Origin: an uncultured Muribaculaceae bacterium
GTDB taxonomy: Bacteria; Bacillota_I; Bacilli_A; RF39; UBA660
Reading direction: 5' to 3'
Assembly (NCBI GenBank): GCA_964616485.1
Contig: CAZTRB010000005.1
Location: 11,592-75,591 of the forward strand
Length of the DNA: 64,000 nucleotides
The notes below the pieces were generated by a model, which saw only the letters and a list, made by a program, of their open reading frames with translations, was not told the origin of the DNA and searched no databases. Of this stretch, positions 13,815 to 54,514 are shown in pieces (the stretch's first letter is position 1; every line of letters starts with the position of its first letter). Made by a program: the position numbers and the translations under genes.

Positions 13815-13847
13815 GCAAGAAAAAAGATATCTTTTTCAAGATATCTT
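13815..13847 (-). terminator. rho-independent terminator of the giant pilin-like gene
   Basis: 10-bp stem AAGATATCTT/AAGATATCTT (13824-13847) with a 4-nt loop, overlapping the stop. It is followed on the minus strand by TTTTTCTT. Confidence 0.7.
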
Positions 13848-16800
13848 ATCCCCAATTTTCACAACCACAAGCTGCTGTTCTACAAGAATTATTTCCTCCT
13901 ACACAAGTACTATAAGTGTATAGACAATTATTCCATCCACATGCACTATGTTGACAATAATAGTATCCGGCACATCCACAGCAATCATTATAACAGGTTG
14001 CAGCTTCCTCACCAGAAACACAACATGTTGTCGAAGTTTTATACCATGTTTGGCCACCCGAACTAGGTTTGCTACTTGCACACTTAGTTCCGCACCCATA
14101 ACCTCCTGTGTTTTGGTAACATTCATAGATATTTCCTTTAGTTTTACAATATGTTCCGCAACAAGAGTAACTAGTACATCTTTTATTTCCAGTACATCCG
14201 CATCCGGCAGTATAACAAGAATTATATCCTCCAACACAAACGGACGGGTTACCTGTTAAACAAGAATTCCATCCACAATTAGCATGTTGACAACTCTTAT
14301 TGGTAACACAACTCGATGTTATAGAACAAGTTCCTGTATTACCCGCTCCATCTGTAACCGTGTATGTCTTTGTACCTTTAACATTTGAATCATTATATGT
14401 AGCTGGAGATACTCCACTTGCATTATCAGAAGTTGTAACTTTTACGGTTATTCCATTAGCTCCATTCGCTGTTTTAACAGCAGTACAAGTAGGATTAACT
14501 GTATCTCTTTTTATCGTAAATACATTAGATGCAGCAGATGCATTACCTGCATTGTCAATTGATCTTACATAGAAATTCCAATTCCCATCCCAGTTTATCG
14601 TCCATGGATTTGACATTGCTGTCCAATTTGCAGCATCATGACTATACTGATAACTAGCAATTCCAGAACCAGTTCCGTCCGAAGATGATGCAGTTATTAC
14701 AACATTAGATTTTGTCCAAGTGCCTGAAGTATAAGAACCTAGATTGATCGTTGGTTTTGAAGGTTTTGTTGCATCTCTCTTTATTGTTACGACATTTGAA
14801 TTATCACTTATGTTACCAGATTTATCTATAGCCCTTACATAAACGTTCGTAGATATATCTGAACTAATTGTCCATGGATTCGACATCGTCGTCCATCCCG
14901 ACGTCCCATTAGTACTATATTCATATCTATCTAAGTTAGTATCCGATGAACTCGCTGTTATGACAATATTTTGATTTGACCATGTATTAGATGTATATGT
15001 AGTACCATCTGCTTTTTTCAAGGTTAAAGTTGGTTTCGACGGTTTCGTCGCATCTCTTTTAACATTAAAGACGTTTGACACATCACTTATATTACCAGCA
15101 CCATCAGTAGACCTTACATAGTAATTACTTTCGACATCTGTACTAATTGTCCATGGATTTGCCATATTTGTCCATCCTGAAGTTCCATTAACACTATATT
15201 CATATTTACTTATTCCTGAAATATTATCAGTTGAACTTGCCGTTACGACTACATTGCCAGAGGTCCATGTCCCTGAAGTATAAGAACCTAAATTGATCGT
15301 CGGTTTCGATGGTTTAGTAGCATCCCTTTTGATAACTACGGCATTAGATACATCACTAACATTTCCTGAGGAATCGATTGCTCTTACATAGATGTTTGTC
15401 GAAGTATCCCAGTTAATCGTCCATGGATTTGTCATAGCCATCCATCCCGATGTTCCGGTCGTACTATATTGATATCCAGCTAAGTTATCATCAGTTGAAC
15501 TTGCTGTAATGATTATATTTTGATTTGACCATGTATTAGATGTATAAGTAGAATTGTCTGCTTTCTTCATTGTCAATGTTGGTTTTGATGGTTTCGTCGC
15601 ATCTCTTCTAACAATAAATGGATTTGAATTATCACTTACGTTACCAGCACCATCAGTCGATCTGACATAGTAAGTTTTATCGGTATCGAAGTTTATCGTC
15701 CATGGATTTGACATCGTCGTCCATCCTGAAGTTCCATTGTTACTATATTCGTATTTGCTTATTCCCGAAATATTATCAGTTGAACTTGCCGTTACGACGA
15801 CATTACCAGAAGTCCATGTACCAGAAGTATACGAACCTAGATTAATCGTCGGCTTCGATGGTTTAGTACCATCTATTTTTACCGTTTGGTTGTTCGGACA
15901 AGTAACACAGTTTCCTGCTCTATCACAAACCTCGCCCGGTCCAGCCGTCGTCGTATTTATATCACTAGTATAAGGTTTAGTAATTGTCGTATTTACACAA
16001 CCACTACCACTATCACTACAAGTACCAATTATATTTACAGTCGTCTTACTCCATGCAGAACTTCCACCACTACTTACACAAGTTGGTTTCGTCGTATCGA
16101 TCGTATCGACGACTACCGCTTTATTAGTAACATGTCCAGCTTGGTCCTTAACCCACACATAATATGTACCATTATCAGAAGCTATATTTGGAACACCAAT
16201 TCCAAAACTAGTTCTTGCCGATATAGCGGTAAATGTCGGTTGTGTCGTCGAACTCTTATTTATACCGTAACCGATTATTCCTGAATTAGTATCTGTTCCG
16301 GTAAATACTATCGTTCCGTTAAGTCCGTCTTGACCAGTATCGATTATCGTCGAGTACGCTACATCCCAACTTACTGAAGTACCAGAACCCGTCAAGTAAA
16401 CGTGTCCGAAAGTCGAGAACGTTCCCGAACTACCCGCTTTTTGAATATAGATATATTCTGCCCAATCTCCAGTTCCAGCTTGTGGAGTGATCCAGTAGAC
16501 GCTTGAACCTGTACCGGTAGAATTAGAAGCTCTTTGAATAGTATACCCAACTGGTATCTTTGCAATTATTCTATGAGCATATACAGCATTAGCTCTCGAA
16601 GTTACAGTTTGAACATAACCTCCTAATCCAGGAGAACTGACACCATTTGTCGTTATTCTCATAACGTATGAACCATATGGGTTAGATTGAGCTACTCTAG
16701 CGTGAGTAACAGTACCATTTCCACTATTATTATATACGCTAAAGTTATTTGTCCCAGAAGCAAACGTCGGATCTTTGAATAACGGAGTCCCTGATATTGC

Positions 16801-18897
16801 TTCTGATATAACCGGAGCATTTTTATCTATTCTTACGATTTGGTCAGCCTGGCAAGTAGTACAGTTTCCTGCATTATCACAAACTTGTCCAGGTGATTCA
16901 TTAGTCGAATTTATATTAGAAGTATATGTTTTCGTTACCGTCGAATTCACACAACCACTATCAGCGTCATTACACGTTCCAGTAATCGTGACATTCGTCG
17001 TTTTCCATGTAGCGCTTCCACCACTATTTATACATGTTGGTGGTTCGTTATCGGCAGTTATCGTTTGGTGATACCATCCGCCACTATTTGGCGATTGAGT
17101 TATGACGTTACCAGCATTATCAACTAGTCTCGTATAAACGGTATATACTCCTCCAGGTAAACTAACAACGTGTTTATTTTGTCCAGTAATAGATGTAATG
17201 CCACCTACAGCAACACCGTTTCTTTCCATCTTGACTTGGAACTCTTTAATACCACTCAAATTATCAGCAACCGTAATTGTCAACGTTTGATTAGCACTAT
17301 ATACTCCCGTTAATAAGCTATAACTTGCAGTAGGAGCCGTCTTGTCGATTCTAGAAATCGTTACTGATGAAGGATCAGATGATAAACCGACAACGTTTCT
17401 CGTACGAACTTGAGCATTCGTTACATTTGACGAATAAATATTATAATTTGTCGATTGCCAAGAAGCGCCATCATTAAACGAATACTCAGTCGTTCTAACT
17501 AATCCAGCTCTTGGAATCAAGTTAACTTTTACATTGTTCTTAGTCCAGATACCTGGAGAAGCAGCGACTAAATCAATTCTAGAAACATTGTAAGATACAC
17601 CACTTAGTGCTCCTAAAACTAATCTAAAGTTAGAGTATTGTCCAACCGAAGGTAAAATAAACTCTATGTCTCTAGTACCTTGAATCATTAATGCTGATAC
17701 TGAGAGTTCATTCCCATTTTGATCTTTAAAGTAGACTCTACCCGTCGTCGTCGTTGGAATATTAGTATTTAAAGTCACAGTTAATTTCTTAATACCATTA
17801 AATGTCGGATACGAAGCAGTACCAAACGTTATAACTGGGTTTGTCGTAGTCGTCGTTAGTATTGTACCCGCTAAATTTAACCCCGAAAGAGTATATTCAT
17901 ATTGGTTAGGGAACAATTGATATGCATACTCAACATCAAATTCTGGTTTTGGAACACCCACTCTTACGTCGATTGAACAAATCCCCTCATTACCCGCTTC
18001 GTCTTTAACATAACCTACGACTGTCGTAAGTCCCATATCTAATTTAAGACTATCTTTTTTATTATAATCAATATTCTTTATACTAGTACCAAGTCCATAA
18101 GTTAAAAGTCCACTATCAGCATCATCTTTAGTATCGAACTTAACATAAACGTCTCCCGAATACCACCCTAACGCTTCTAAGTTTCCGCCATCTCTAATAA
18201 GTGTACAAGTTGGAGGAGTCTTATCGACATATACTTTTACCGGACAACTAGTTTGATTTCCACTCTTATCAACTATATTAATAAAACTCTCAGTAGTAGT
18301 CGTACCAAATGTCTTAGAGAATCTAGCTAAACGACAACCACTAGTTTGGTCACTACAACCAACACTAATTGTTCTATTTTCCTTAGTCCATGTAGTAGAT
18401 TCACCTATGACACTACCACATACCGGATTATCATTATCAGATTCATACTTAGAACAAGCCGAACCTTCAGTAGAATAATTTTCACAATACAAACACGCTC
18501 TATATTCGTAGTCACCACTAACTTTGCTTACCTCAACATAACTAAGTAAACTATTACAAAATCCATCTGTTTCCGGATCTTTTAATTCATCAGAGTAACC
18601 TTTTTCAATAACATCACTCAAATAGACAATAGATCTATCTCCATCGCCTGGTAAATTACAAGTGTAATCATTATTAGCAATACAATCAACAACCATGTTA
18701 TTCGTAGCTGTTTGCATATTCTTTTCATAAGCTAAATAAGTATTATCCTTACTACTTCCAATATAATTAGAAATAGCCGGAACTGTAATGATTGCCAATA
18801 TAGCAATTATCACGATAACGGCGATTACTTCTATTAAAGTAAACCCTTTCTTTTTCTTGGCTTTTTCCAAAATTTTACTAACAGTTTTCTTTCGCAT
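13846..18897 (-). CDS. giant (1683 aa) modular protein with an N-terminal type IV prepilin (class III) signal, multiple Ig-like modules and a Cys-rich C-terminal domain
   Basis: The start at ATG 18895-18897 is supported by AAGGAG 7 nt upstream and by a TTGACT-17-TAAAAT promoter lying inside the track's longer ORF. Leader MRKKTVSKILEKAKKKKG, then FTLIEVIAVIVIIAILAIITVPA (G-1, F+1, E+5; encoded at 18829-18846). The body has recurring D.SG(I/L)..Y and D.AGN strand motifs. No LPXTG. Confidence 0.9.
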   Translation of the reverse strand: MRKKTVSKILEKAKKKKGFTLIEVIAVIVIIAILAIITVPAISNYIGSSKDNTYLAYEKNMQTATNNMVVDCIANNDYTCNLPGDGDRSIVYLSDVIEKGYSDELKDPETDGFCNSLLSYVEVSKVSGDYEYRACLYCENYSTEGSACSKYESDNDNPVCGSVIGESTTWTKENRTISVGCSDQTSGCRLARFSKTFGTTTTESFINIVDKSGNQTSCPVKVYVDKTPPTCTLIRDGGNLEALGWYSGDVYVKFDTKDDADSGLLTYGLGTSIKNIDYNKKDSLKLDMGLTTVVGYVKDEAGNEGICSIDVRVGVPKPEFDVEYAYQLFPNQYEYTLSGLNLAGTILTTTTTNPVITFGTASYPTFNGIKKLTVTLNTNIPTTTTGRVYFKDQNGNELSVSALMIQGTRDIEFILPSVGQYSNFRLVLGALSGVSYNVSRIDLVAASPGIWTKNNVKVNLIPRAGLVRTTEYSFNDGASWQSTNYNIYSSNVTNAQVRTRNVVGLSSDPSSVTISRIDKTAPTASYSLLTGVYSANQTLTITVADNLSGIKEFQVKMERNGVAVGGITSITGQNKHVVSLPGGVYTVYTRLVDNAGNVITQSPNSGGWYHQTITADNEPPTCINSGGSATWKTTNVTITGTCNDADSGCVNSTVTKTYTSNINSTNESPGQVCDNAGNCTTCQADQIVRIDKNAPVISEAISGTPLFKDPTFASGTNNFSVYNNSGNGTVTHARVAQSNPYGSYVMRITTNGVSSPGLGGYVQTVTSRANAVYAHRIIAKIPVGYTIQRASNSTGTGSSVYWITPQAGTGDWAEYIYIQKAGSSGTFSTFGHVYLTGSGTSVSWDVAYSTIIDTGQDGLNGTIVFTGTDTNSGIIGYGINKSSTTQPTFTAISARTSFGIGVPNIASDNGTYYVWVKDQAGHVTNKAVVVDTIDTTKPTCVSSGGSSAWSKTTVNIIGTCSDSGSGCVNTTITKPYTSDINTTTAGPGEVCDRAGNCVTCPNNQTVKIDGTKPSKPTINLGSYTSGTWTSGNVVVTASSTDNISGISKYEYSNNGTSGWTTMSNPWTINFDTDKTYYVRSTDGAGNVSDNSNPFIVRRDATKPSKPTLTMKKADNSTYTSNTWSNQNIIITASSTDDNLAGYQYSTTGTSGWMAMTNPWTINWDTSTNIYVRAIDSSGNVSDVSNAVVIKRDATKPSKPTINLGSYTSGTWTSGNVVVTASSTDNISGISKYEYSVNGTSGWTNMANPWTISTDVESNYYVRSTDGAGNISDVSNVFNVKRDATKPSKPTLTLKKADGTTYTSNTWSNQNIVITASSSDTNLDRYEYSTNGTSGWTTMSNPWTISSDISTNVYVRAIDKSGNISDNSNVVTIKRDATKPSKPTINLGSYTSGTWTKSNVVITASSSDGTGSGIASYQYSHDAANWTAMSNPWTINWDGNWNFYVRSIDNAGNASAASNVFTIKRDTVNPTCTAVKTANGANGITVKVTTSDNASGVSPATYNDSNVKGTKTYTVTDGAGNTGTCSITSSCVTNKSCQHANCGWNSCLTGNPSVCVGGYNSCYTAGCGCTGNKRCTSYSCCGTYCKTKGNIYECYQNTGGYGCGTKCASSKPSSGGQTWYKTSTTCCVSGEEAATCYNDCCGCAGYYYCQHSACGWNNCLYTYSTCVGGNNSCRTAACGCENWG
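14500..15873 (-). repeat. five in-frame tandem repeats (~270-279 bp, 90-93 aa each) in an A-B-A-B-A pattern inside the giant gene
   Basis: Units begin D(A/G)TKPSKPT at 15873, 15603, 15324, 15054 and 14775 (complement). A-type units read INLGSYTSGTWTSGNVVVTASSTDNISGISKYEYS. B-type units read LT(M/L)KKAD..TYTSNTWSNQNI(I/V)ITASS. DNA copies are similar but carry many synonymous differences. Confidence 0.9.
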
Positions 18898-18931
18898 AAT
18901 AAAGCTCCTTGTATTATCTTTTATATATAAC

Positions 18932-18960
18932 ATTTTAATATCTTTATACATAATAGTCAA
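18932..18960 (-). promoter_or_regulatory. sigma-A-type promoter of the giant pilin-like gene
   Basis: Complement: TTGACT (18955-18960), 17 nt spacer, TAAAAT (18932-18937). About 35 nt upstream of the ATG. Confidence 0.5.
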
Positions 18961-19105: not shown

Positions 19106-21121
19106 ATGAAGAGATTTTTATTCGTGATTCTTTTGATATTGCTTCTTTTTAATAGTGGAACAGCACATGCAGAAATTATTAAGACTGGTCGGGCTATAGC
19201 CGATGTTGGGCTTAGAATTAGAGCTACTCCCTCTACTAGCGGAACACAATTAGGAACGATACCCTATGGAACGATAGTTAGAATCATCGGTGAAGCGAAT
19301 GGTTCGGGATGTAACGATCCTTGGTTTCAAGTAATTTACTCTACTGGTAATAGTAATATAAACGGTTATTCTTGTTCTACTTATATAACGGAAATTACGG
19401 AGTATGATACTGAAGAGAATACGCCTACAACACCACCAGTAAATAGCGAGGACTTCGAAGCCTACTTAACTTCACAAGGATTCCCAGAAAGCTACAAAGT
19501 CAAACTAAGAATTTTACACGAACAACATCCTAATTGGATATTTGTCGGTATAAAAGTAAGAGAGTCTTGGCAAACGTCTTTAAATCTTCAAGGCGAAGAT
19601 GGAAGAAGTACATTAAATGTTAATGCGGCAAGAAAGGCTTTGGGGCAAGAGGGATATTTATCGACTGCAGCGGGACACTATAACTATGAGACTGACACTT
19701 TTATTCCTAAAGATGGTACTTATTGGTTTCAAGCTAACTCAGATGCTATTGGATATTACCTTGACCCAAGAAACTTCATGGACGAGAAAAATGTTTTCAT
19801 GTTCGAAAGTCTTTTACAAAACGATGCTATTCATACTAAATCAGTAGTCGACGGGATCTTGTCGAGTGACTTCATGAAACAATATTCTAATCATTTCATG
19901 AAAGGTGCAAGAGACTACAACGTTTCTGCTACGCACTTAGCATCACTATCTAGACAAGAAGTAGGAATTACTAACGGTAACATTGTTACTAACGGAAAAG
20001 CCGGAGTATTATCAGACGGAGTTAACTATAACGGTTACTATAACTTTTTTAATATCGGAGCATCATCATCGGGAGATCCGAAGTTAAAATCGTTACAAAG
20101 CGCTAAAGCTCGCGGCTGGAATTCACCTGAGAAATCAATCGTTGGTGGAGCGGCTTTTATATCTAGTGGTTATATTAATGCCGGACAATACACGGCTTAT
20201 CTTCAAAAGTTTAACGTCGATCCTAATGCTACTAAAGGAATATGGCATCAGTATATGACTAACATAGCGGCATTATCTTCGCCGGCAATTACGACATATA
20301 ACTCATATAATAATCTCGGTTTCATAAACCATTCATTTATATTCTCGATTCCAATATTTACTAATATGCCAGAAAGCACTTCGTTACCTCCCTTAGGTAA
20401 CCCAAATAACTGGCTAAAAGAAATAAAGATAAATGGTATCGCTTTATCTAGTTTCTACGGTGGTACCACTAATTACACCATCGATATTCCTTACGAGGAA
20501 GAGATTACAGTAGAGGCTAAAAAAGTAAATAGTAACGCTACTGTATCAGGAACTGGAACAAAAGCCTTAACGGAAGACAAAACCACTTTAACGATTAAAG
20601 TCACTGCTCAAAACGGAAGCGTTAAAAACTATACGGTAACAGTTAATCGTGGGATAAAAGACGATCCTAACTTAGAGATAGATCTTCTATTAAAAGATGT
20701 CTTAACTGATAGCAAATACAAATACGATAGTAAAAATCTTTGGGGAATAACTCTAGGAACTAGCGTTAAGAGTCTTACTAGTAAAATAAAAGGAAAATAT
20801 AAAACAGTAAGTGTAAATATAAAAAATAAAGACGGCAATACTAAAACAGACGGTGTCATAGTTACAGGAGATAAAGTAACGATAACGACTAAACAAGAAT
20901 CTACTACTATCGAAGTAATAATCTTTGGTGATACTAATGGAGACGGATACATCTCGGCAATCGACATCTTAAGCGCTCAAAAACATATCCTTGGATATAC
21001 TACTCTTTTAGGAACTAGTTTCAAAGCGGCAGACATAAATAAAGACGGTGTCATATCAGCTTATGACTTACTACAATTTCAAAAACACGTCTTAGGTTAT
21101 ACTAATATAAGCCAATCATAG
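19106..21121 (+). CDS. secreted peptidoglycan N-acetylglucosaminidase (GH73-like) with SH3b, cadherin-like beta-sandwich and C-terminal dockerin
   Basis: Sec signal ending AHA|E. SH3b-like GLRIRATPSTSGTQLGTIPYGTIVRIIGE. Glucosaminidase-like core (YLDPRNF...HLASLSRQEVG...YNFFNIGA). Cadherin-like module at 20413-20652. Dockerin duplicated F-hand: GDTNGDGYISAIDILSAQKHILG and AADINKDGVISAYDLLQFQKHVLG (20927-21105). Confidence 0.85.
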   Translation: MKRFLFVILLILLLFNSGTAHAEIIKTGRAIADVGLRIRATPSTSGTQLGTIPYGTIVRIIGEANGSGCNDPWFQVIYSTGNSNINGYSCSTYITEITEYDTEENTPTTPPVNSEDFEAYLTSQGFPESYKVKLRILHEQHPNWIFVGIKVRESWQTSLNLQGEDGRSTLNVNAARKALGQEGYLSTAAGHYNYETDTFIPKDGTYWFQANSDAIGYYLDPRNFMDEKNVFMFESLLQNDAIHTKSVVDGILSSDFMKQYSNHFMKGARDYNVSATHLASLSRQEVGITNGNIVTNGKAGVLSDGVNYNGYYNFFNIGASSSGDPKLKSLQSAKARGWNSPEKSIVGGAAFISSGYINAGQYTAYLQKFNVDPNATKGIWHQYMTNIAALSSPAITTYNSYNNLGFINHSFIFSIPIFTNMPESTSLPPLGNPNNWLKEIKINGIALSSFYGGTTNYTIDIPYEEEITVEAKKVNSNATVSGTGTKALTEDKTTLTIKVTAQNGSVKNYTVTVNRGIKDDPNLEIDLLLKDVLTDSKYKYDSKNLWGITLGTSVKSLTSKIKGKYKTVSVNIKNKDGNTKTDGVIVTGDKVTITTKQESTTIEVIIFGDTNGDGYISAIDILSAQKHILGYTTLLGTSFKAADINKDGVISAYDLLQFQKHVLGYTNISQS

Positions 21122-21130
21122 GAGGACTTT

Positions 21131-22546
21131 ATGAAAAAAATCTTTAAACCATTTACAATGGTTTTCCTTTTTACAGTGATGTTTTTGTTTAATAATAACG
21201 TCTTGGCAGCTAACTTAAATGTCTCGATAACCTCGAGTACTAGTAGAGCGGTAGTTGGTAACAATATTACTTATACGGTTAGAGTGTCTTCTAATGCTAA
21301 ATTTGGTAATATTCATTATAGATTAGAATATGACACTTCTAAGTTAACTCATGTAAGTGGAACACTAAATAATTTTGATTTAAATGTTATCGATAAATAT
21401 TCTGCTACTTACACTTTTACTTTTAGAGCAAAAGCAAGTGGTAATGCTAGAGTAACGTTCGTAATCAACGAAGCCTTAGAATTAAATAACAATTCTTTTA
21501 ATTATAATACTAGAACCAATAAAGATATAACGATCATAACTCAACAACAATTAGAAGCTAGCTATAGTAAAAACAACTACCTATCATCTTTAAAAATAGA
21601 TAATTTTGAAATGACACCGGCTTTTAATAAAGATACTTTAGAATACTCGATAGAATTAGAAAACGATGTTAAATCAATAAATATTAGCGGTACTAAAGCA
21701 GATTCAACAGCATCAGTCGAAGGTTTGGGTGCACATGAATTAATAGAAGGACCAAATAAAATAAATATAAAAGTTACTGCCCAAAACGGTGCCTCTAGAA
21801 CATATACGATAAATGCAACGGTAAAAGAATTAAATCCCATTATCGTAACTGTCGACGGCAAAGAATATAATGTCGTTAGAAAAAAAGACCTAATAAAAAA
21901 ACCTAATAGCAAATACGAAGAGACGATTATACAAATAAATGAAGAAGATGTCCCAGCTTTCATAAACGAGACGACTAAAGTAACATTAATCGGGCTTAGA
22001 GATGAAGAGGACAACATTTCTTTATTTAGTGTTAAAAATGATACGTATATTCCTTACCAAGAATTCGCTTTTAGTAGTATAATATTTACGGAAGAAAATT
22101 TAGACGATCTTCCTAAAGGTTATACTAAAACTAAATTAAAACTCGAAGAAGTAGAAATAGACGCTTATCAAGATAACTCTAACTTAAATTTCTACCTAAT
22201 AAAAGGAGTGAACATTGAAACGGGAATAACTTCCCTATATCAATATGATAGTAAAGAAAACACTCTTCAAATATATAATGATTCATTAGCTAAACAAAAT
22301 AAGGAATTAACTAATAAGAATAATATTTATCTTTATACTATAATTGGTCTAATAGCACTCATAGCTATATCTTCCGGAACGATATTAGTAAAGACTTTAA
22401 AAAATGAAAAACCTAAAATAAAAAAAGAAGAGAAGACCGACAAAAAAGTCAAAGAAAAAGTAGAGGAACCGAAAGAACCTATCATAGAAGAAGAGAGTCT
22501 AACAAAACAAATAAAGAAAATGAAAAAAAATAAAAAACAATCTTAA
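21131..22546 (+). CDS. membrane-anchored surface protein with cohesin-like N-terminal domain and cadherin-like beta-sandwich
   Basis: Sec signal (VLA|AN). Residues ~27-135 (21209-21536) read VGNNITYTVRVSSNAKFGNIHYRLEYDTSKLTHVSGT, which fits the cohesin pattern. Cadherin-like module at about 21580-21825. C-terminal TM helix (IYLYTIIGLIALIAISSGTILV) and a Lys/Glu-rich tail. Confidence 0.7.
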   Translation: MKKIFKPFTMVFLFTVMFLFNNNVLAANLNVSITSSTSRAVVGNNITYTVRVSSNAKFGNIHYRLEYDTSKLTHVSGTLNNFDLNVIDKYSATYTFTFRAKASGNARVTFVINEALELNNNSFNYNTRTNKDITIITQQQLEASYSKNNYLSSLKIDNFEMTPAFNKDTLEYSIELENDVKSINISGTKADSTASVEGLGAHELIEGPNKINIKVTAQNGASRTYTINATVKELNPIIVTVDGKEYNVVRKKDLIKKPNSKYEETIIQINEEDVPAFINETTKVTLIGLRDEEDNISLFSVKNDTYIPYQEFAFSSIIFTEENLDDLPKGYTKTKLKLEEVEIDAYQDNSNLNFYLIKGVNIETGITSLYQYDSKENTLQIYNDSLAKQNKELTNKNNIYLYTIIGLIALIAISSGTILVKTLKNEKPKIKKEEKTDKKVKEKVEEPKEPIIEEESLTKQIKKMKKNKKQS

Positions 22547-38018: not shown

Positions 38019-39059
38019 TTACATAATTAACGCTTTTTCATTCAAAACATAGCGATAAGCCTTATTTTCATGGATAATAATAAACGTACTTTCTCTTTTC
38101 CTCTTACTCTCAAAAAACAAGATAGGTATCCTTAATTCATCTTCGATATCGATTAGATCTTTAACGTTAGTTATATCCATTACATTAAATTTACTTAAGT
38201 CTGGTTTTTTAGCCACTTCAGCGATAACATTGGCATAAGTAGTTAAGATCCTATCTCTTTCTTTAGTGTAAGGGTCAGCGTTTTTAAGGTGTAGTACTCT
38301 CTTTAAATAATAGAAGAATAAGACAAATGACACCATTACTAAGAATATTCCAATAGTAAGACCGTACTGATTAACGATGTTATCTTTACTAAAAACATTT
38401 TTATTCTCATTGAAAGATCCCGTTTTATCGACACTTACTACCGTATCCAAAAGAGGAATTTTAGCTGTCATAGTGTGAAGATCAGCGACTTTCTTAGCCG
38501 TTTCTTTAGTCGTAATAAGATTGTTTATTTCAAAGACAACTTTTATATAAGCCTCTGTTAAGATAGAACTTTCTTTTCTAAACTCCAAAGCTTCTTCTTG
38601 ATATTCTTTATAATCGATAGTCGTTTTATAATCAAAGAACACGACTCCTGTCTCTTGTTTTATGACTTTATTTTTAGGAAACAAAACGTCTTCTCTCTTC
38701 CATAATTCTTCCGTTTGAAGGCCGTCTTTATAAGTGTTAACTAAAAACAAAGATATAGAATATTCCGCTTCAGAATCAATTAGATTAATAGACGTAAGGT
38801 CATAAGTAAATTTTAAATCGATATAGTCGATATATTTAGCTAGAATCTTATTCTTATTAATATATTCATCTTTATATAAAAAGTTATCTTTTAGTCTAAA
38901 ATTATACTCGATATCACCGAAAGATTTATAATCGACAACGATATTATTTTTGTTATTTTCTATACTCGTACTATCATAAGTTATAATTGATCCGGCAAAA
39001 AAGAGTAATACCCCTAGTAATAATAATACTATACTTTCCTTTTCTTTAGTTCTTTTCAT
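38019..39059 (-). CDS. DUF5305-like two-TM protein (346 aa), last gene of the accessory operon
   Basis: N-terminal TM helix, an extracytoplasmic domain of about 200 aa, a second TM helix (YGLTIGIFLVMVSFVLFFYYL), then a cytoplasmic C-terminal domain. This topology next to SipW-type peptidases matches what I recall for DUF5305. The assignment is unverified. Confidence 0.55.
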   Translation of the reverse strand: MKRTKEKESIVLLLLGVLLFFAGSIITYDSTSIENNKNNIVVDYKSFGDIEYNFRLKDNFLYKDEYINKNKILAKYIDYIDLKFTYDLTSINLIDSEAEYSISLFLVNTYKDGLQTEELWKREDVLFPKNKVIKQETGVVFFDYKTTIDYKEYQEEALEFRKESSILTEAYIKVVFEINNLITTKETAKKVADLHTMTAKIPLLDTVVSVDKTGSFNENKNVFSKDNIVNQYGLTIGIFLVMVSFVLFFYYLKRVLHLKNADPYTKERDRILTTYANVIAEVAKKPDLSKFNVMDITNVKDLIDIEDELRIPILFFESKRKRESTFIIIHENKAYRYVLNEKALIM

Positions 39060-39073
39060 CTTGACCTCCTATT

Positions 39074-40213
39074 TTAATTATTTAAAAGTTCATTAAACCA
39101 TACTGTAGGATATCCAAAATATGGTAGAGAAACATTATATTTTGCAACTATGTCTTCCGGATAAACTCTCCAGTTATCTTCTGACGAATTATTATCTCCT
39201 TTTGTTATGAGATAATCTATATCACCATTAGATAATCTACTTATATAATTAATCCTGTGAACGACATAGGTATTATCGTATCTATAATAGATTATATCAT
39301 ATTGAACTAAATTATTAATATCTTTATCACTTAATTTTTCTAAAATTAATAAATCTCCTCTTTTAAAAGTATCTTTCATACTATCGGATAAAACGGCCAT
39401 CGGATAATAATTAAATACTCTTAAGATAAACATTATTAATACCGATACGACGATGGCAAGAATAGTTATACCACCATTCTTTTCATCGATAAACCTTCTC
39501 GTTCTAGAATCGCTATTATTAACCAAGGTACTTATATTAAAATAGACGAACATCGGTAGCAACAAACCGAATAGAGTCGTTACAATCCAGGGATGGCTAG
39601 GTAAAATAGGTAAGATGATTAGTAATAGTCTCGTCCATACCAAGTAGATTATAGTCGTCTTATACTTCATATTTCTTTGTAAATAAGTCATGACATAACT
39701 AGTTATAATAAGCGGAAGGACTAATGAAGAAAACATCTTAAAAAGATAACTAAACTCACTTACAGAGAAAATATATAAGACATTCATACTACTGAAAGCC
39801 AATAAAAATGAAATGATACTATTATTAATTAAAGTATCTTTGGAGTTGGTAATTAACTTATATCTTATATACTCGTTTACCGTTATCGTTCCAATAGTAG
39901 TAAAAACAACTTTTAAAAGAGTAATTAAAGACCTATTATATATCGATTTCTCATAACCAAAGAAAAGACCAGACATAAAATATATTAAAGAATATATTAT
40001 TAAGATTATTATTATGTTTTGAGTCTTATCGTAGTTATCTTTGCTCTTAGTATATTTAGTATCGAATAAAAAGAAGAAAGTAACTGCTATTATCGATAAA
40101 ATTATCATATTCATTATTCCTGCATACACAGAGAAGATAGAAGTAACTAGATAATTTTGAAATATTATATATAAAAACAGTATTATATATGTTAAATATA
40201 TTTTCTTCATCAT
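39074..40213 (-). CDS. SipW-type (S26B, archaeal/ER-type) signal peptidase I fused to an N-terminal polytopic membrane domain of about 270 aa
   Basis: C-terminal AVLSDSMKDTFKRGDLLILEKL...VVHRI...ITKGDNNSSED parallels B. subtilis SipW (SGSMEP..GD.., H, TKGDNN). The N-terminal two-thirds form about 7-8 hydrophobic helices. Start MMKKIY (40213 or 40210) with GGAGGA directly upstream; the track start at 40261 is unlikely. Confidence 0.75.
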   Translation of the reverse strand: MMKKIYLTYIILFLYIIFQNYLVTSIFSVYAGIMNMIILSIIAVTFFFLFDTKYTKSKDNYDKTQNIIIILIIYSLIYFMSGLFFGYEKSIYNRSLITLLKVVFTTIGTITVNEYIRYKLITNSKDTLINNSIISFLLAFSSMNVLYIFSVSEFSYLFKMFSSLVLPLIITSYVMTYLQRNMKYKTTIIYLVWTRLLLIILPILPSHPWIVTTLFGLLLPMFVYFNISTLVNNSDSRTRRFIDEKNGGITILAIVVSVLIMFILRVFNYYPMAVLSDSMKDTFKRGDLLILEKLSDKDINNLVQYDIIYYRYDNTYVVHRINYISRLSNGDIDYLITKGDNNSSEDNWRVYPEDIVAKYNVSLPYFGYPTVWFNELLNN

Positions 40214-40310
40214 GGTCCTCCTATTATAAATATTATATACTACAACAAAGAAAAAAAACAACTTTTACAGTCTTTTGTACTGTTTAATTGTTTTTTTGTA
40301 AACTTATCTT

Positions 40311-40826
40311 TTAACGAACTACATAGTCAAGTGTCAGCCTCAAGTCTTTTGTTAAGTCTTCAGCGGTAACTTCTTCAGTCATATCTGGATTATAATAAGC
40401 TATAACTTCAAATAATTTGCTTTGTCCGACTTGTAATACTTCACCGGCTTCTATTCCGTTTATTGTATAAATAATAAATCCTTCTCCATAGTCTTTAGGA
40501 TTTAATTCAATGGCATTTAATTTAGCATCTAGGTTTCCTTGATTTCTAACATTAACAACATATTTAACGGTATCACCAGGATCGACAAAAGTAGCGCTAA
40601 ATATAGCGGTCTTAGAATCTAAAACGGTCGATTCTAAACTTTTTCCACTTCCCTCAGTCTCTGTGCTATTAATTGCCGTTATCGCGACGTCAAAGTCAGG
40701 GTTAACGATCGTAGCACTTCCTTTTATTTCTAACTGCGTAGATAAAAGAGCATACCCTACTGACACAAAAACAAGTGCAACTAGTAAAGCTCCAATCATC
40801 GTATTTTTCTTATCTTTATTGCTCAT
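40311..40826 (-). CDS. exported beta-sandwich protein with a SipW-cognate-type signal peptide (TasA/camelysin-like)
   Basis: KKNTMIGALLVALVFVSVGYALLSTQLEIKG resembles the SipW-cognate signal class (G-x-x-A-hydrophobic-hydrophobic-S/T). The mature part has a DPGDTVKYVVNVRNQGNLDAKL motif like TasA/CalY. Strong RBS GGAGGA. Confidence 0.55.
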   Translation of the reverse strand: MSNKDKKNTMIGALLVALVFVSVGYALLSTQLEIKGSATIVNPDFDVAITAINSTETEGSGKSLESTVLDSKTAIFSATFVDPGDTVKYVVNVRNQGNLDAKLNAIELNPKDYGEGFIIYTINGIEAGEVLQVGQSKLFEVIAYYNPDMTEEVTAEDLTKDLRLTLDYVVR

Positions 40827-40880
40827 ATAATCCTCCTATAATAAATTTTAATATATATGGCTTTTATTGTCAATTATTCG

Positions 40881-41948
40881 CTATGAATCTACTACTTTTA
40901 ATTTAAGACGAATCATACTCTTAACCTGATTAAATTGTTCAGTAGAATGAAACATTGTCTGTGAAATTGTCGTTGAACCTACTTTATCACCAGTTACGAC
41001 CCATTCGTAATAGTTTGTTCTTAAGAATGTACTAGGGTCTTTTCTATTTACATAAGGTTCAGAAACAGCTGTCGCATAGTTTTGCCAACCTTTAGCACCA
41101 TCAGCCGTCGTCCTTTGAAGCTGTTTTATTTTACCAGCACTAACTGGAAGTTTTACGATTATTCTAATAGTCTCTCCCTTTTTTACGACTATTTCATCAT
41201 CTCTTTTATATTCTTTTCCGTTATACCAAAGAGTAGGAGTTTGGGCTACTTTACCTATTTTAGGTGAGATATAATAATCATCATTATCAATATCTCCGAC
41301 AAAAGCCCTAGCTTCTTCATCGAGACTAAGATTAGTACTAGTTATTTGACTATTGACTATCTTTTTAACTTCTTCTTCCTTTATTTTAATCTCTTCTATT
41401 TTAGTAGTAGTAACTCCTTTAATAGAGGCTATCTCTTTATCAATACTCTCTTTTAAAATCGTCAAAGTTCTAAAGTCACTATCGACATTCGTCGTTAATT
41501 CATCTTTAGTAGATTGATAAGTCTTATAAGCACTAGTTAAAGTAGTCGTCTCTTCATTATTACTATCTAACTCGTATTTAGGTGAAGGTTCTCTTAGTTT
41601 ATCAAGAGTCTCTTTATTTTTCTCATACTGTAAATCTAAATCTTTAAAAGTCTCTAACATCGATACTAGATTGTTTACTATGCGTTCTGAAACTGGAATC
41701 AATGCTTGTTCGACATTTTTATTAAGATTTTTAATAGCTTCTATTATCTGTGGTAAAAACTCGGACTTTAAATACTCTTGTCCCGCTTCTTTCCAATTCT
41801 CACCGCTCATCGAATCTAATAGATTTGTGTCTATATCAACTATTTTAGTAACATCTTCAAGCACCCTTTTCGCTTTGTTAACAAGTTCTTTTTCACTTTT
41901 GAGTTTTTCATAATAATTATCGTAAGGATTAATATAAAAAATTGCCAT
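40881..41948 (-). CDS. LXG-like T7SS-substrate-type protein with a beta-rich (Ig-like) C-terminal domain
   Basis: No signal peptide. The helical N-terminal region of about 200 aa contains LLDSMSGENWKEAGQEYLKSEFLPQ, which parallels the LXG-domain core of Bacillus LXG proteins as I recall it (DALKGKGGDAIRTFYEECHKPFL). The C-terminal ~150 aa (GETIRIIVKLPVSAGK...YEWVVTGDKVGSTTISQTM) look like a Big-type beta-sandwich, with no nuclease or deaminase motif. Confidence 0.5.
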   Translation of the reverse strand: MAIFYINPYDNYYEKLKSEKELVNKAKRVLEDVTKIVDIDTNLLDSMSGENWKEAGQEYLKSEFLPQIIEAIKNLNKNVEQALIPVSERIVNNLVSMLETFKDLDLQYEKNKETLDKLREPSPKYELDSNNEETTTLTSAYKTYQSTKDELTTNVDSDFRTLTILKESIDKEIASIKGVTTTKIEEIKIKEEEVKKIVNSQITSTNLSLDEEARAFVGDIDNDDYYISPKIGKVAQTPTLWYNGKEYKRDDEIVVKKGETIRIIVKLPVSAGKIKQLQRTTADGAKGWQNYATAVSEPYVNRKDPSTFLRTNYYEWVVTGDKVGSTTISQTMFHSTEQFNQVKSMIRLKLKVVDS

Positions 41949-41964
41949 TTAATCACATCCTTTA

Positions 41965-42288
41965 TTAATTTATATCTAATTTGCTAGTATTGTCTTCTAA
42001 AAATTGAATTCGATTTCTTTCATCGGTATTATAAGCTTCGATTGCTTCTTCTAAAAACAAAATCAAACTCTCTAATTCTTTTATTTCTAAAGGAAAGTTT
42101 TCACTTATCTTTAAATACTTGTCATACATAATTTGTTGAGTCTTACCAACCCAAACATCAGTTTCTCCATTTATTTGCTTTAGATTATGATCTAATTCAT
42201 CGAATTTACTTTCAAGACTAAACTTTTTTTGTTTTAAAAGAGCTACTACTTTTTCAAGTTCTTTAGTATTAATATCTAAATTCATCAT
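41965..42288 (-). CDS. WXG100-family small helical protein (107 aa)
   Basis: Helix-turn-helix size class with a central W46-V-G48 (TGGGTTGGT, complement of 42145-42153). ATGA overlap with the upstream gene. Confidence 0.65.
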   Translation of the reverse strand: MMNLDINTKELEKVVALLKQKKFSLESKFDELDHNLKQINGETDVWVGKTQQIMYDKYLKISENFPLEIKELESLILFLEEAIEAYNTDERNRIQFLEDNTSKLDIN

Positions 42289-42587
42289 AGCTTATCACCG
42301 TCTTTTCTCATTTCAGCAACAAACTCATTATTTCTCTTAGTGTATACCCCCATACAATAGTCTATCTTTTCATAGATTCTTTTCAACCTATGATTCTCAT
42401 ATTTACTTTTTGAAATAAATCCACGATACTTATCACAAAAAGCATCACTATCGACGCCTTTCCAATTTTGTTCGATTATCGGAAGTAAGTCTTCTATTTC
42501 TTTAATTACTTTTTCTATCTCTTCATACTTAGTCTCAATAGATAACGAAACACTATCCATTTCTTGAAATTTAACTTTTAGTTTCAT
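42285..42587 (-). CDS. WXG100-family small helical protein (100 aa)
   Basis: Central W42-K-G44 followed by ..DAF (EQNWKGVDSDAF; complement of 42456-42464). It starts 1 nt after the upstream stop. Confidence 0.65.
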   Translation of the reverse strand: MKLKVKFQEMDSVSLSIETKYEEIEKVIKEIEDLLPIIEQNWKGVDSDAFCDKYRGFISKSKYENHRLKRIYEKIDYCMGVYTKRNNEFVAEMRKDGDKL

Positions 42588-42588
42588 A

Positions 42589-43482
42589 TTAAACTCCTTG
42601 CTTCAATACATCGATATATATTTCGTTAGTCAATAGGGTTTCAACGGTAATATCTAACTTTTTAGCGATGTTATTGATATAGTTTTTATATATACTCATC
42701 TCTTTATTAGTTAAGCCATCCGGTATTTCAGGAGCATAATAAAGAGAGTGAAAAGTTTTAAACAAAAGAGTCTTATTTTTATCCTCGATTAATAGTTCGG
42801 AAAAAGTAATATTACTTGATTCTGCTACTTTTTCTAGATGTTCTTTAGTTATTAAAAAAGTCAGGCTTTGTTCAAAAATATTAAAATCTTTGTTTTTTGC
42901 TAACAATTCTAAAAGTTGTTTTTGAATGACAAAATTATCTTCTGTAGAAAAAACTAAATTTGGTGCGAATCTTTTTAAGTAGAAGATTAAGGCCTTAGTG
43001 TTTTGGCCTCCAAATAAAAGACGATTTAAATTAAATGGGTCTTTTTCGTTAACGTTTTGAACTAGCAAACTTTGTCCAAACGAATCGAAATCAGCAAGGT
43101 CCGTAATCTGGCTATTAGGAAGCATGCTTGGTCCACCTACAGTCTCTCCAATTACACCACTAAATCCACCACCTCCAGTATAGCCACTATAACCACTACC
43201 ATTATTAGTATCATCTTCGACAATCTTACCAAGATTCTCTTCACTAGTTATCATGTCTTCACTATGTCCTCTAAGTCTTCTAATTAATTGTGTTTTATTT
43301 GTAGCAAGACTATCTACGTCTTTTTTAATATCTTCGGCAACAGTCGATAGTTCTAATTCTTTAAATACAGCAAAATCAGTAGCCACCGAAGTAGCGACTG
43401 CTTCCAAAAGGGCCGAAGTCTCTGATAACTTACTAATTACTTCTTCTAATTCTGCAGAGTTATAAATTATTTCATTTGTCAT
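42589..43482 (-). CDS. helical N-terminal (Lap1/SACOL2603-like) protein with Gly-rich linker and unknown C-terminal domain (297 aa)
   Basis: N-terminus MTNEIIYNSAELEEVISKLSETSALLEA resembles the DUF3130/TIGR04197-type start of T7SS accessory proteins. Gly-rich linker NNGSGYSGYTGGGGFSGVIGETVGG. The C-terminal ~170 aa are unassigned. No signal peptide. Confidence 0.45.
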   Translation of the reverse strand: MTNEIIYNSAELEEVISKLSETSALLEAVATSVATDFAVFKELELSTVAEDIKKDVDSLATNKTQLIRRLRGHSEDMITSEENLGKIVEDDTNNGSGYSGYTGGGGFSGVIGETVGGPSMLPNSQITDLADFDSFGQSLLVQNVNEKDPFNLNRLLFGGQNTKALIFYLKRFAPNLVFSTEDNFVIQKQLLELLAKNKDFNIFEQSLTFLITKEHLEKVAESSNITFSELLIEDKNKTLLFKTFHSLYYAPEIPDGLTNKEMSIYKNYINNIAKKLDITVETLLTNEIYIDVLKQGV

Positions 43483-52462: not shown

Positions 52463-54514
52463 TTACTTATATTCCTCTTTATCTTTACGCATTTCTAAAG
52501 TAGCTTCATTTATAGCATCATCAATCGTCTTTATCTCATCGATAATCATACTAAAACCAATAGCAGCACCAAATCCATAAGGAAGAGTCTTTAACTCTTT
52601 AGAAATCTTTTTAGCATAAGTAGTAACTTGTTGTTCACTGTATCCGACCAAATAAATTAAGAATTCATTTCCATCAGTTCTTATAATCTCAGTCTTTTCA
52701 AGCTGAGTATTAACTAAAATACTAGCAGCACCAATAATAAGCTTATCACCTTGATCATAACCATAATTGTCATTTACATATTTAACATTATTTAAGTCGA
52801 TTACGATTATACCTTGTGGATACTTATCACTATCATTCCATAGTTTTTTACTAAAGTTTAAGTAATTTCTATTCTTAAGAGAAGTTAACATATCAGTATA
52901 TTTACGACGCTCTTCTTTCTTAACATATTTTTTCTCTTTAAAACTTCTTAATATTAGAATAACGACTAAGATAGCTATGATAGGAATGATTAAGATAACA
53001 AAAAGTATTACATATAATTCTTCAAAAGAACTCTTTTCTAAAAGTGTTAGATTAAGACTGCTTAGACCTTCGTTACGATAATTATAATAAGAGTTAGTAC
53101 TTATTATATAGTCGAATATTTTATGTAAGACTTTATTGCTATCATCATTTTTAACCATAAAATTATAGTCTTTAGTAATCGTCGATTCAAATAAAATCTC
53201 ATAATCAGAAAACTTATTATTTTTGTAATAGTTATATACTTCTTTATCGACGACGACTAAGTTACCATTAGAACTCTTAAGTAGACTGTCTAGAGTTTGT
53301 GCTGGTACGAGAGCAGCTTTGCTACTATCTTTAAAATAATTATAAATAGCATTGTTTTCTAATAAGTATACTTTTCTACCTTTAGTCGACTCAAAAGTAT
53401 TAACGACAAACTTATCTTTAGCTTTTCCTAAGACGACATATTTCTCGATAAACGGAGAAATAGTAGGTACGTAATTACTATGTTCAAAATCATAGTAATT
53501 AAAGTAAATATCAACTTCCCCCTTATTAATAGCTTCTTTTAAAGCTTCAAGGGTATCGTATTTATTAAAAGTTATTACCTTATCACTCATTAATCTTTGC
53601 ATCCTACCAATGTATTCAGCAGCTATTCCCGACAATTCCTTCTTGTCTTTTACTTCGTAAGGATAGTTTTCTACATAACCATAAATATAGTTTTTAGTTA
53701 AAAATTCTGTCTTTTCCTTATCGTTTATATTAGCGGCATTAATATAATAATCTAAAAGCATCTTATTATATACCGAGACGTAATTGTTCTTCTTCCAAGT
53801 CTTAAAATATTTAGTAACGATCTCGTTCATTCTCGAATCATTCTCTTTATCACTTAAAGAGAGAACGATACTTCTACTAAAATCGGTAAATATGTATTTA
53901 ATATGAAAATCTTCTTTTAAAATAGTCTCATTCAGATACATCGTATTAGGAATAATAATCATATCGATAGCGTCTTTTTCATAATCTTCAAAAAGTTTAT
54001 CGGCTTCTTCATAAGTCTTATATTTGACTTGACCATAACTCTTTAAATAATAAATTATCTCATCAGAATCGTTAGCTAAAATTCCAAAAGTCTTACTTCC
54101 CACCTCATTAATTGAGTCATATCTACCTTTTTCTTTACCAATCAAAGCATAGACTTCTTCTTGTAAGAATAAGTCTTTTTCACTTAATACTTCTTTATTA
54201 GTTAAAATTCTAAATCTATAGCCTTTAGAATCGATAACACTTTCTTTTAAAAAAGGAACAACATTAAATTCAAAACCAGTATCTTTACTAAAATCATCGA
54301 TAAATCTTCTAAAAACACCGCCGTTACCAAAAACAGGATAATCACTAAGAATACTAAAATCGACGACTGTCGCTTGATTCTCCTTAATCCATTTATTATC
54401 CGCTACCGTAAACGAATTTTGGTCTTCCTTATTAAAATAATAATATAACGATAAGAATGTCACTATCGCTATTATTAAAGGTATTATAAATAACCATTTC
54501 TTCTTAATTTTCAT
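52463..54514 (-). CDS. membrane sensor protein with two extracytoplasmic SBP-like domains and a degenerate GGDEF domain
   Basis: Signal-anchor, a large extracellular region, a TM helix (VILFVILIIPIIAILVVILIL), then a GGDEF fold (LTSLKNRNYL...IDLNNVKYVNDNYGYDQGD...). The signature reads R-T-D-G-N-E-F (52661-52675, complement) instead of GG(D/E)EF. Confidence 0.8.
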   Translation of the reverse strand: MKIKKKWLFIIPLIIAIVTFLSLYYYFNKEDQNSFTVADNKWIKENQATVVDFSILSDYPVFGNGGVFRRFIDDFSKDTGFEFNVVPFLKESVIDSKGYRFRILTNKEVLSEKDLFLQEEVYALIGKEKGRYDSINEVGSKTFGILANDSDEIIYYLKSYGQVKYKTYEEADKLFEDYEKDAIDMIIIPNTMYLNETILKEDFHIKYIFTDFSRSIVLSLSDKENDSRMNEIVTKYFKTWKKNNYVSVYNKMLLDYYINAANINDKEKTEFLTKNYIYGYVENYPYEVKDKKELSGIAAEYIGRMQRLMSDKVITFNKYDTLEALKEAINKGEVDIYFNYYDFEHSNYVPTISPFIEKYVVLGKAKDKFVVNTFESTKGRKVYLLENNAIYNYFKDSSKAALVPAQTLDSLLKSSNGNLVVVDKEVYNYYKNNKFSDYEILFESTITKDYNFMVKNDDSNKVLHKIFDYIISTNSYYNYRNEGLSSLNLTLLEKSSFEELYVILFVILIIPIIAILVVILILRSFKEKKYVKKEERRKYTDMLTSLKNRNYLNFSKKLWNDSDKYPQGIIVIDLNNVKYVNDNYGYDQGDKLIIGAASILVNTQLEKTEIIRTDGNEFLIYLVGYSEQQVTTYAKKISKELKTLPYGFGAAIGFSMIIDEIKTIDDAINEATLEMRKDKEEYK

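Follow-up and report, generated by a model that had tools for sequence, protein, structure and literature searches.

A signal peptidase fused to a predicted CPBP-fold membrane domain and encoded with AbpX-like subunits in uncultured gut Bacilli

The stretch of DNA analysed here (the window: 64,000 nucleotides, contig CAZTRB010000005.1 of assembly GCA_964616485.1, from an uncultured Muribaculaceae bacterium that GTDB places in the Bacilli_A, RF39, UBA660) carries on its minus strand a gene, 39074..40213, whose product joins a polytopic membrane domain to a signal peptidase. The protein is a real and widespread two-part membrane enzyme. Its C-terminal domain is an intact Ser278-His319 dyad enzyme of the Sec11/SipW type, while structure models predict that its N-terminal domain (N-domain) is a CPBP-fold module devoid of the catalytic histidines of that family, and not a canonical CPBP protease. 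In uncultured gut bacteria, the peptidase most likely processes subunits that build a cell-surface fibre of the TasA/AbpX type. A system of AbpX-like subunit, polytopic type I signal peptidase (SPase I) and DUF5305 protein has already been described in outline, and the present result is an extension of it; the new increment is the predicted identity of the N-domain as a CPBP-fold pseudo-protease, together with the fixed length of the subunit signal peptide. The features of the locus are as follows (TM, transmembrane helix).

39074..40213, minus strand: whole gene, predicted CPBP-fold domain plus SPase I (evidence: open reading frame (ORF) list, ribosome-binding site, 354 homologues, AlphaFold2 (AF2) model)
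39479..40213, minus strand: N-terminal 8-TM domain (residues 1-245), predicted CPBP / Rce1 / SpdC / APH-1 fold
39863..39874, minus strand: E114-Y-I-R117 in TM4, a near-invariant E..R pair, likely remnant of CPBP motif 1 (evidence: conservation)
39589..39609, minus strand: P202-I-L-P205-x-x-x-W209 loop between TM7 and TM8, predicted outer face (conservation: P202 97%, P205 99%, W209 86%)
39077..39478, minus strand: basic cytoplasmic linker, TM9 anchor (248-263) and Ser-His SPase I catalytic domain (S278, H319, D340, D346)
40311..40826, minus strand: putative AbpX-like (TasA-superfamily) fibre subunit, 171 aa (evidence: hhalign, PDB profile match)
38019..39059, minus strand: DUF5305 protein, 346 aa, putative accessory subunit of the peptidase (Pfam PF17231, 48.5 bits)
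40845..40873, minus strand: best sigma-70-like promoter match of the region, TTGACA-17-TAAAAT, 11/12 (consensus scan, pattern match only)

The fused peptidase and its membrane domain

The gene lies in a single uninterrupted ORF, 39074..40261 in the ORF list, which contains no in-frame stop, has no alternative frame and ends with a stop codon at 39074-39076. Translation from the ATG at 40213, the start adopted in the original prediction made from the letters alone, gives 379 aa, and from the ATG at 40210 it gives 378 aa. The difference is trivial; 40210 is probably the true start because the AGGAGGA box at 40216-40222 lies at a better spacing from it (~6 nt, against 2-3 nt for 40213) and because the database entry P0001, 100% identical to the window protein, has 378 aa. 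A longer form with a TTG start at 40261 was rejected, as it lacks a ribosome-binding site and the homologues begin at MKK.

The model TIGR02228 (sigpep_I_arch) covers residues 250-372 with a score of 68.8 bits, above its cutoff of 51.85, and the C-terminal part matches Pfam Peptidase_S26 (PF10502) at 32.2 bits (cutoff 22.9). The originally noticed motifs SDSM (S278), H319-R320 and TKGDNN (337-342) are indeed present, and across 234 full-length relatives they are 95-100% conserved, with S278, M279, H319, R320, G339, D340 and D346 at 100%. The closest solved sequences to the catalytic domain are SEC11C/A (E 1.3e-9, 31% identity); the catalytic residues including N342 align to SEC11C. A profile score above the cutoff, a Ser nucleophile, His and not Lys as the general base, and the GDNN aspartates place the domain among the signal peptidases of endoplasmic reticulum (ER)/archaeal type (S26B). 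The SipW equivalog model NF046067 was not reached by the window protein (57.8 bits, cutoff 190).

Bacillus subtilis SipW resembles the window protein in being an ER-type Ser-His SPase I with the GDNN and SxSM boxes, which shares an operon with its substrate and serves a TasA-superfamily fibre. However, SipW, which processes TasA and TapA, has ~190 aa (profile length 189) and terminal anchors only, whereas the window protein has 379 aa, nine TM helices, an additional 245-aa domain of predicted CPBP fold and no C-terminal anchor, and its system includes a DUF5305 partner where that of SipW includes TapA. The eukaryotic signal peptidase complex (SEC11A/C with SPCS1-3) contains the closest solved catalytic domain and likewise surrounds its catalytic subunit with accessory membrane subunits, but these are unrelated to the parts found here, one of which is fused (the predicted CPBP fold) and the other a DUF5305 protein.

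The fusion is not a peculiarity of this contig. A database search returned 354 homologues of the full-length protein, the best 120 of which measure 274-404 aa, nearly all of them 370-400 aa, mostly at 85-100% query coverage. A profile of residues 1-245 alone, searched against 1.84 billion cluster representatives, matched 1,586 proteins (1,227 of them at E <= 1e-10). The N-domain practically never occurs without the peptidase, so that the fusion is essentially obligate, because nearly all of the best 150 profile matches are 370-400 aa long and are matched over residues 1-250, and the shorter ones are fragment-like. In a scan of one genome per species with an 11-sequence alignment, 190 genomes carried a relative; these are mostly metagenome-assembled genomes (MAGs) of uncultured gut "Bacilli", with CAG:710, CAG:822 and Candidatus Fimihabitans also represented, and three of them are closed long-read chromosomes of 1.3-1.5 Mb (OZ006981, OZ007022, OZ007038). 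The original prediction had allowed for its own refutation if a membrane protein gene and a short SipW gene had been merged by a sequencing or assembly frameshift. Such an artefact is excluded, because the identical architecture and length recur in hundreds of independent assemblies, nearly all of the listed homologues being full-length, and in closed long-read genomes and archaea; the ORF without an in-frame stop or alternative frame likewise speaks against it. The second objection raised there, that the fusion may be common and already characterised, holds in its first half: the fusion is common and has been flagged in one published sentence, but it is uncharacterised.

Two irregular gene models were encountered among the relatives. 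At L069:315-1493, in a MAG (Mollicutes bin), the peptidase is split into ORFs of 304 and 83 aa, likely by a frameshift or in a pseudogene, the reverse of a merger. The family member P0244 (655 aa) carries ahead of its polytopic peptidase an AbpX-class signal (…GVSYSYLNLRLTIHGT…) and, after this signal, CBM49 and CBM2 domains; either substrate and enzyme are fused in nature here, or two genes were merged in the gene call.

The AF2 model of the full-length protein reached a pLDDT of 86.7 and a pTM of 0.64, and that of the N-domain alone 89.3 and 0.85, respectively. Eight helices precede the catalytic part (2-25, 31-49, 60-85, 96-122, 128-150, 154-181, 184-200 and 209-236), in agreement with the seven to eight expected originally; they are followed by a disordered basic linker, SRTRRFIDEK, and by helix 9 (248-263), which leads into the beta-rich catalytic domain. 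Since the eight helices end at residue 236 and the anchor of the peptidase spans 248-263, the N-domain comprises ~245 aa. The original description of a SipW-type peptidase fused to a membrane domain of ~270 aa is borne out by the single ORF and the model as regards the fusion, and was too generous as regards the size. Because Lys/Arg clusters occupy the loops 50-59, 123-127, 181-184 and 237-247, the positive-inside rule would place both the N-terminus and the end of the eight-helix bundle inside.

The fold search with the N-domain model ranked four proteins first, all of them members of the CPBP (type II CAAX protease) superfamily. The two values obtained for each match are listed in turn.

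SpdC/LyrA (6u0o_A): 14.3; 213
Rce1 (4cad_C): 13.0; 205
APH-1B: 8.7; 146
TMEM147: 7.8; 150
next best: 6.2; 77

Pei et al. reportedly proposed APH-1 as a member of the CPBP superfamily in 2011. The Foldseek comparison that had been suggested for the N-domain gave the same ranking, with SpdC (TM-score 0.56 at a probability of 1.00) and four chains of Rce1 at the top, and the fold result was reproduced with the full-length model. In its predicted structure, the N-domain has the eight-TM Rce1-type fold characteristic of the CPBP / type II CAAX protease family, an assignment that appears to be new. The segment NEYIRYK (residues 113-119, bases 39857-39877) had been dismissed in the original prediction as only superficially CPBP-like; that judgement is overturned at the level of the predicted fold, since SpdC, Rce1, APH-1 and TMEM147 are the top matches and the segment would therefore mark a genuine CPBP-fold domain.

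Within this segment, E114 (231 of the 234 members) and R117 (230) on helix 4 are the most conserved residues of the N-domain, and they align to an E..R pair in the archaeal homologues (REMVR, MESLR). The motif reads (E)ExxR, with EExxR in some members. N102, on the same helix, is Asn in 230/234 members and Val in the window protein (39908-39910) and one other member. Further conserved positions are Y74, Y78, G82, G86, Y92, P167, Y177, Y190, P202, I203, P205 and W209, and short beta strands at 87-89 and 203-205, present in both the full-length and the N-domain model, may pair with each other. CPBP motifs 2 (FxxxH) and 3 (HxxxN/D) are absent, as originally stated, because no N-domain column contains His or Cys in >=30% of the 234 members.

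Sequence searches did not recover the family. PF02517 (CPBP) matched none of 29 N-domains up to E 10; Pfam and NCBIfam, searched to the same limit with the full protein and the 29 N-domains, yielded no family for the N-domain (a DUF6541 match of 13 bits was below cutoff), and its profile found nothing among all PDB sequences at E up to 10. The pattern EExxxR...FxxxH...HxxxN/D of genuine CPBP proteins occurred in no ORF of the window or of 81 loci. In comparison with the CPBP family (Rce1, PF02517) and its relatives SpdC/LyrA, APH-1 and TMEM147, which are not known to be catalytic, the N-domain is distinguished by the lack of detectable sequence similarity and by the covalent fusion of its partner enzyme. 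Exosortase/archaeosortase, AgrB and rhomboid-type identities were dropped, as Cys, His and Ser are nowhere conserved in the domain and the fold search led to other families.

The three-gene unit and its relatives

The suggested survey of the fusion and its companion genes found 1,586 N-domain representatives and, in 80 related loci, a fixed gene order: AbpX-like gene(s), fused peptidase, DUF5305 gene. AbpX-like genes precede the peptidase in 60 of the 67 loci with enough upstream sequence, always co-directionally and in 1-7 tandem copies encoding secreted proteins of 165-215 aa. A DUF5305 gene lies directly downstream in 78/80 loci (median gap 15 nt, occasional overlap). The window has the same order, 40311-40826, 39074-40213 and 38019-39059, its DUF5305 gene beginning 14 nt after the peptidase stop codon. 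The promoter-like site at 40845..40873, just upstream of the subunit gene, is a possible start of the three-gene unit. The product of 38019..39059 shows by hydropathy a TM at 7-31, an outer domain of ~195 aa, a second TM at about 228-256 and a cytoplasmic tail of ~90 aa, as described for DUF5305 proteins in a preprint of January 2026 (bioRxiv 10.64898/2026.01.04.697558).

That preprint assigns AbpX to the donor-strand fibres of the TasA superfamily and notes beside abpX a "ten-TM" SPase I, with DUF5305 as an accessory (bioRxiv 10.64898/2026.01.04.697558); it does not mention CPBP, CAAX, Rce1 or SpdC. Our literature search found no publication joining signal peptidase, CPBP and TasA, and for SipW together with CAAX only a general review of Bacillus proteases. 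By profile comparison, the small secreted protein of the unit is AbpX-like, which would make it a member of the TasA superfamily. With a profile of 30 family members the top match among PDB sequences is AbpX 9sj2, a weak one (E 0.067), and hhalign of the family profile against Pyrodictium abyssi AbpX, taken from the preprint supplement, gave 90.6% (E 1.3e-6, 136 columns). The alignment spans the signal-peptide junction, with family VGYA|AFATQLNINGTA opposite AbpX GLTYA|QWSETLSLSATIS; the mature N-terminus of AbpX lies at the site GLTYA|QW (bioRxiv 10.64898/2026.01.04.697558). The mature part of the window subunit (isoelectric point 4.23, 15.9% D+E) matches the description of acidic AbpX homologues in the preprint. 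A weak match to Peptidase_M73/camelysin was obtained for 5/30 members. Scanned over the window with the hidden Markov model of the subunit family, 40311-40826 was the sole match, and no other candidate substrate was seen. The window has a single copy of this gene; L012, L028, L031 and other loci have up to seven tandem paralogues before the peptidase, which may reflect antigenic variation or a division into major and minor subunits.

The window subunit has a predicted signal peptide of 26 residues (1-26, bases 40749-40826) that would be cleaved after G24-Y25-A26. Among 131 non-redundant AbpX-like N-termini from related loci, 112 have G-Y-A at P3-P1 and 117 have Ala at P1'; at P2', Phe occurs in 96 and Leu in 30. 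Asn comes directly after the last basic residue in 106/131, and the distance from that basic residue to P1 is exactly 19 residues in 121/131, so that the consensus signal reads K-N-x17-G-Y-A|A/L-F/L. The window subunit fits the pattern (K7 ... G24-Y25-A26|L-L, with Leu at P2'). In the subunit family G24 is invariant and Y25 and A26 are conserved in at least 90%; the signal region is better conserved than the mature domain, as is usual for signals dedicated to sorting but not for general Sec signals.

Relatives of the peptidase also occur at archaeal abpX loci. The gene after P. abyssi abpX (WP_338249487.1; L082:4876-6018) encodes a 380-aa S26 protein, which hhalign aligned to the family at 99.2% (E 3.6e-19, 312 columns) with REMVR opposite the E..R motif; the N-domain profile alone gave no significant match to this protein (E 0.11), whose N-domain is too diverged. 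A second archaeal locus encodes, in order, an AbpX-like protein, proteins of 226 and 411 aa, and DUF5305. The 411-aa protein (L083:7372-8607) aligned to the family at 99.8% and to the N-domain profile alone at 96.5% (E 8.9e-10). These alignments indicate that the archaeal abpX-linked peptidases are homologous to the window protein and of the same family. The peptidase, the AbpX-like subunits and DUF5305 are inherited as a unit in bacteria and archaea.

The SPase I of AbpX loci shares with the window protein a length of 380-411 aa, a polytopic N-terminus, a TIGR02228-type domain, the E..R, G..G and P..P motifs, and a position right after an AbpX-like gene and usually before DUF5305. The published account consists of one sentence, without fold assignment or experiments, and speaks of ten TM helices, whereas nine clear ones are counted in the AF2 model of the window protein. 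The window lineage also differs from these cases: it consists of small-genome gut Bacilli that are uncultured and carry as many as 7 subunit paralogues in tandem. A further relative in function is TafD of the haloarchaeal Tat-fimbriae, a dedicated SPase I genetically proven to process a donor-strand fibre subunit and co-occurring with the DUF5305 protein TafG (PMC11821415). Both systems thus pair a dedicated SPase I for a fibre subunit with the gene of a DUF5305 protein, but TafD has four TM helices, an N-terminal peptidase domain and an extra C-terminal outer domain, lacks a CPBP-fold module, and acts on substrates that use the twin-arginine translocation (Tat) pathway, unlike the window system (PMC11821415).

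Proposed role and alternative explanations

On balance, and with considerable room for doubt, we favour the explanation that the peptidase serves an AbpX-like fibre operon, with the N-domain as a non-catalytic docking site and the DUF5305 protein as an accessory subunit of the peptidase. The C-terminal domain, outside the membrane, would cut the signal of the upstream-encoded subunit after G-Y-A and free an amphipathic N-terminal strand (A-F-A-T-Q-L-N-I-N-G-T-A in the family, L-L-S-T-Q-L-E-I-K-G-S-A in the window subunit). The AbpX-like subunits may then form a fibre in the manner of TasA/AbpX-type subunits, which insert such a strand into the next subunit (donor-strand complementation). The N-domain would dock the signal helix of fixed length in the membrane so that, at the outer face, the G-Y-A site is offered to the peptidase fused to it; in the inner leaflet, the buried pair E114/R117 would lie close to the conserved Lys at -19, while the conserved outer loops (G82-Y92 and P202-W209), with their two short beta strands, would face the catalytic domain. 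CPBP-fold proteins are found beside other membrane machines, SpdC as the partner of SagB, APH-1 as that of presenilin and TMEM147 in the translocon, and the docking role is proposed by analogy with them. The original suggestion of a dedicated channel, chaperone or substrate-recognition platform is in part supported, namely as a dedicated peptidase with a probable recognition platform; its rejection of the CPBP link fails at the fold level.

Several observations weigh against this explanation. The match of the subunit to AbpX is remote (PDB profile E 0.067), and mature position 4 is T/S/Q in the subunit family, without the acidic residue that the preprint ties to calcium binding. The E..R spacing is one residue short of CPBP EExxxR, and the window protein has Val at residue 102 where 98% of members have Asn. 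The pTM of 0.64 leaves the inter-domain geometry of the full-length model uncertain, and the near-invariant buried Glu, Arg and Asn102 could mean chemistry and not mere binding.

The last point leads to the alternative that the N-domain is itself catalytically active, as a variant of glutamate-based intramembrane proteases in which E114 would act with R117, N102 and Tyr residues replacing the lost histidines, either destroying the released signal peptide (the role of a signal-peptide peptidase) or cutting or modifying the newly formed N-terminus once more. Three polar residues, 98-99% conserved inside helix 4, are more than a passive scaffold seems to need, and active CPBP enzymes reportedly function in protein sorting (myxosortase, PMC11980579), as does the CPBP protein LnsB in N-terminal lipoprotein acylation (PMC7387801). 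However, the positions of CPBP motifs 2 and 3 offer no conserved His, Cys, Ser or Asp candidate, none of 29 members matched the Pfam CPBP model at thresholds up to E 10, N102 is lost in the window protein, and the best structural match is SpdC, which is not known to be catalytic; we consider an active protease quite unlikely. It is also unlikely that the N-domain is an assembly or anchoring platform, comparable to an usher or anchor, that would bind DUF5305, the base of the fibre as it grows, or both, or would localise the peptidase. Such a role leaves the stereotyped signal peptide of fixed length unexplained, and P. abyssi has a polytopic peptidase beside abpX with no DUF5305 in the ~4 kb inspected on each side.

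Within the docking explanation, a more specific mechanism is possible but tentative: the CPBP-fold pseudo-protease would serve as signal-peptide receptor and ruler, its buried Glu-Arg pair capturing the conserved Lys-Asn on the cytoplasmic side of the 19-residue helix while the Sec11-type domain cuts the outer end. If so, the protein would be a single-chain prokaryotic counterpart of the multi-subunit logic of intramembrane proteases (APH-1 with presenilin, SEC11 with its accessory subunits), and archaea and many uncultured gut Bacilli would have in common a system devoted to sorting and processing AbpX-type fibres. The stereotyped signal of fixed length makes the recognition hypothesis directly testable by mutagenesis. 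A domain known only as "ten TM helices" gains a concrete structural identity, that of a CPBP-fold module without histidines, which would link fibre peptidases to the recurring CPBP/APH-1-type pseudo-proteases that partner membrane enzymes. The three-gene unit occurs in 190 scanned species-representative genomes, mostly of uncultured small-genome gut Bacilli whose surface structures are barely known, and AbpX-type fibres could be a major determinant of adhesion or biofilm formation in them.

Other genes of the window

Upstream of the fibre unit, 40881-43482 on the minus strand contains four co-directional genes, in which proteins of 297 and 355 aa with helical N-termini flank two small ones of 100 and 107 aa that resemble WXG100/ESAT-6 in sub-threshold matches. 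The group looks like a cassette of type VII secretion substrates (LXG-like). Its membership in the fibre system was rejected: its products have no TM segments or signal peptides, it is absent from the other 80 loci, and the strong promoter-like site sets it apart from the trio.

At 52463-54514 (minus strand), ~12 kb from the fibre unit, lies a gene whose 683-aa product is a membrane protein that carries a GGDEF diguanylate cyclase domain at its C-terminus. Enzymes of cyclic di-GMP metabolism often accompany bacterial abpX loci (bioRxiv 10.64898/2026.01.04.697558); any link in the window is speculative. A 1,704-aa protein encoded at 13846-18960 (minus strand) combines the prepilin-type N-terminal methylation motif KKGFTLIEV (PF07963) with Ig-like Big_7 domains, in the manner of a giant pilin-like adhesin. 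Finally, 19106-22546 (plus strand) encodes a 671-aa secreted protein with an SH3_3 domain, a cadherin-like beta sandwich and a type I dockerin, and then a second cadherin-like protein as the next gene; the dockerin is unexpected in this small-genome lineage of gut Bacilli.
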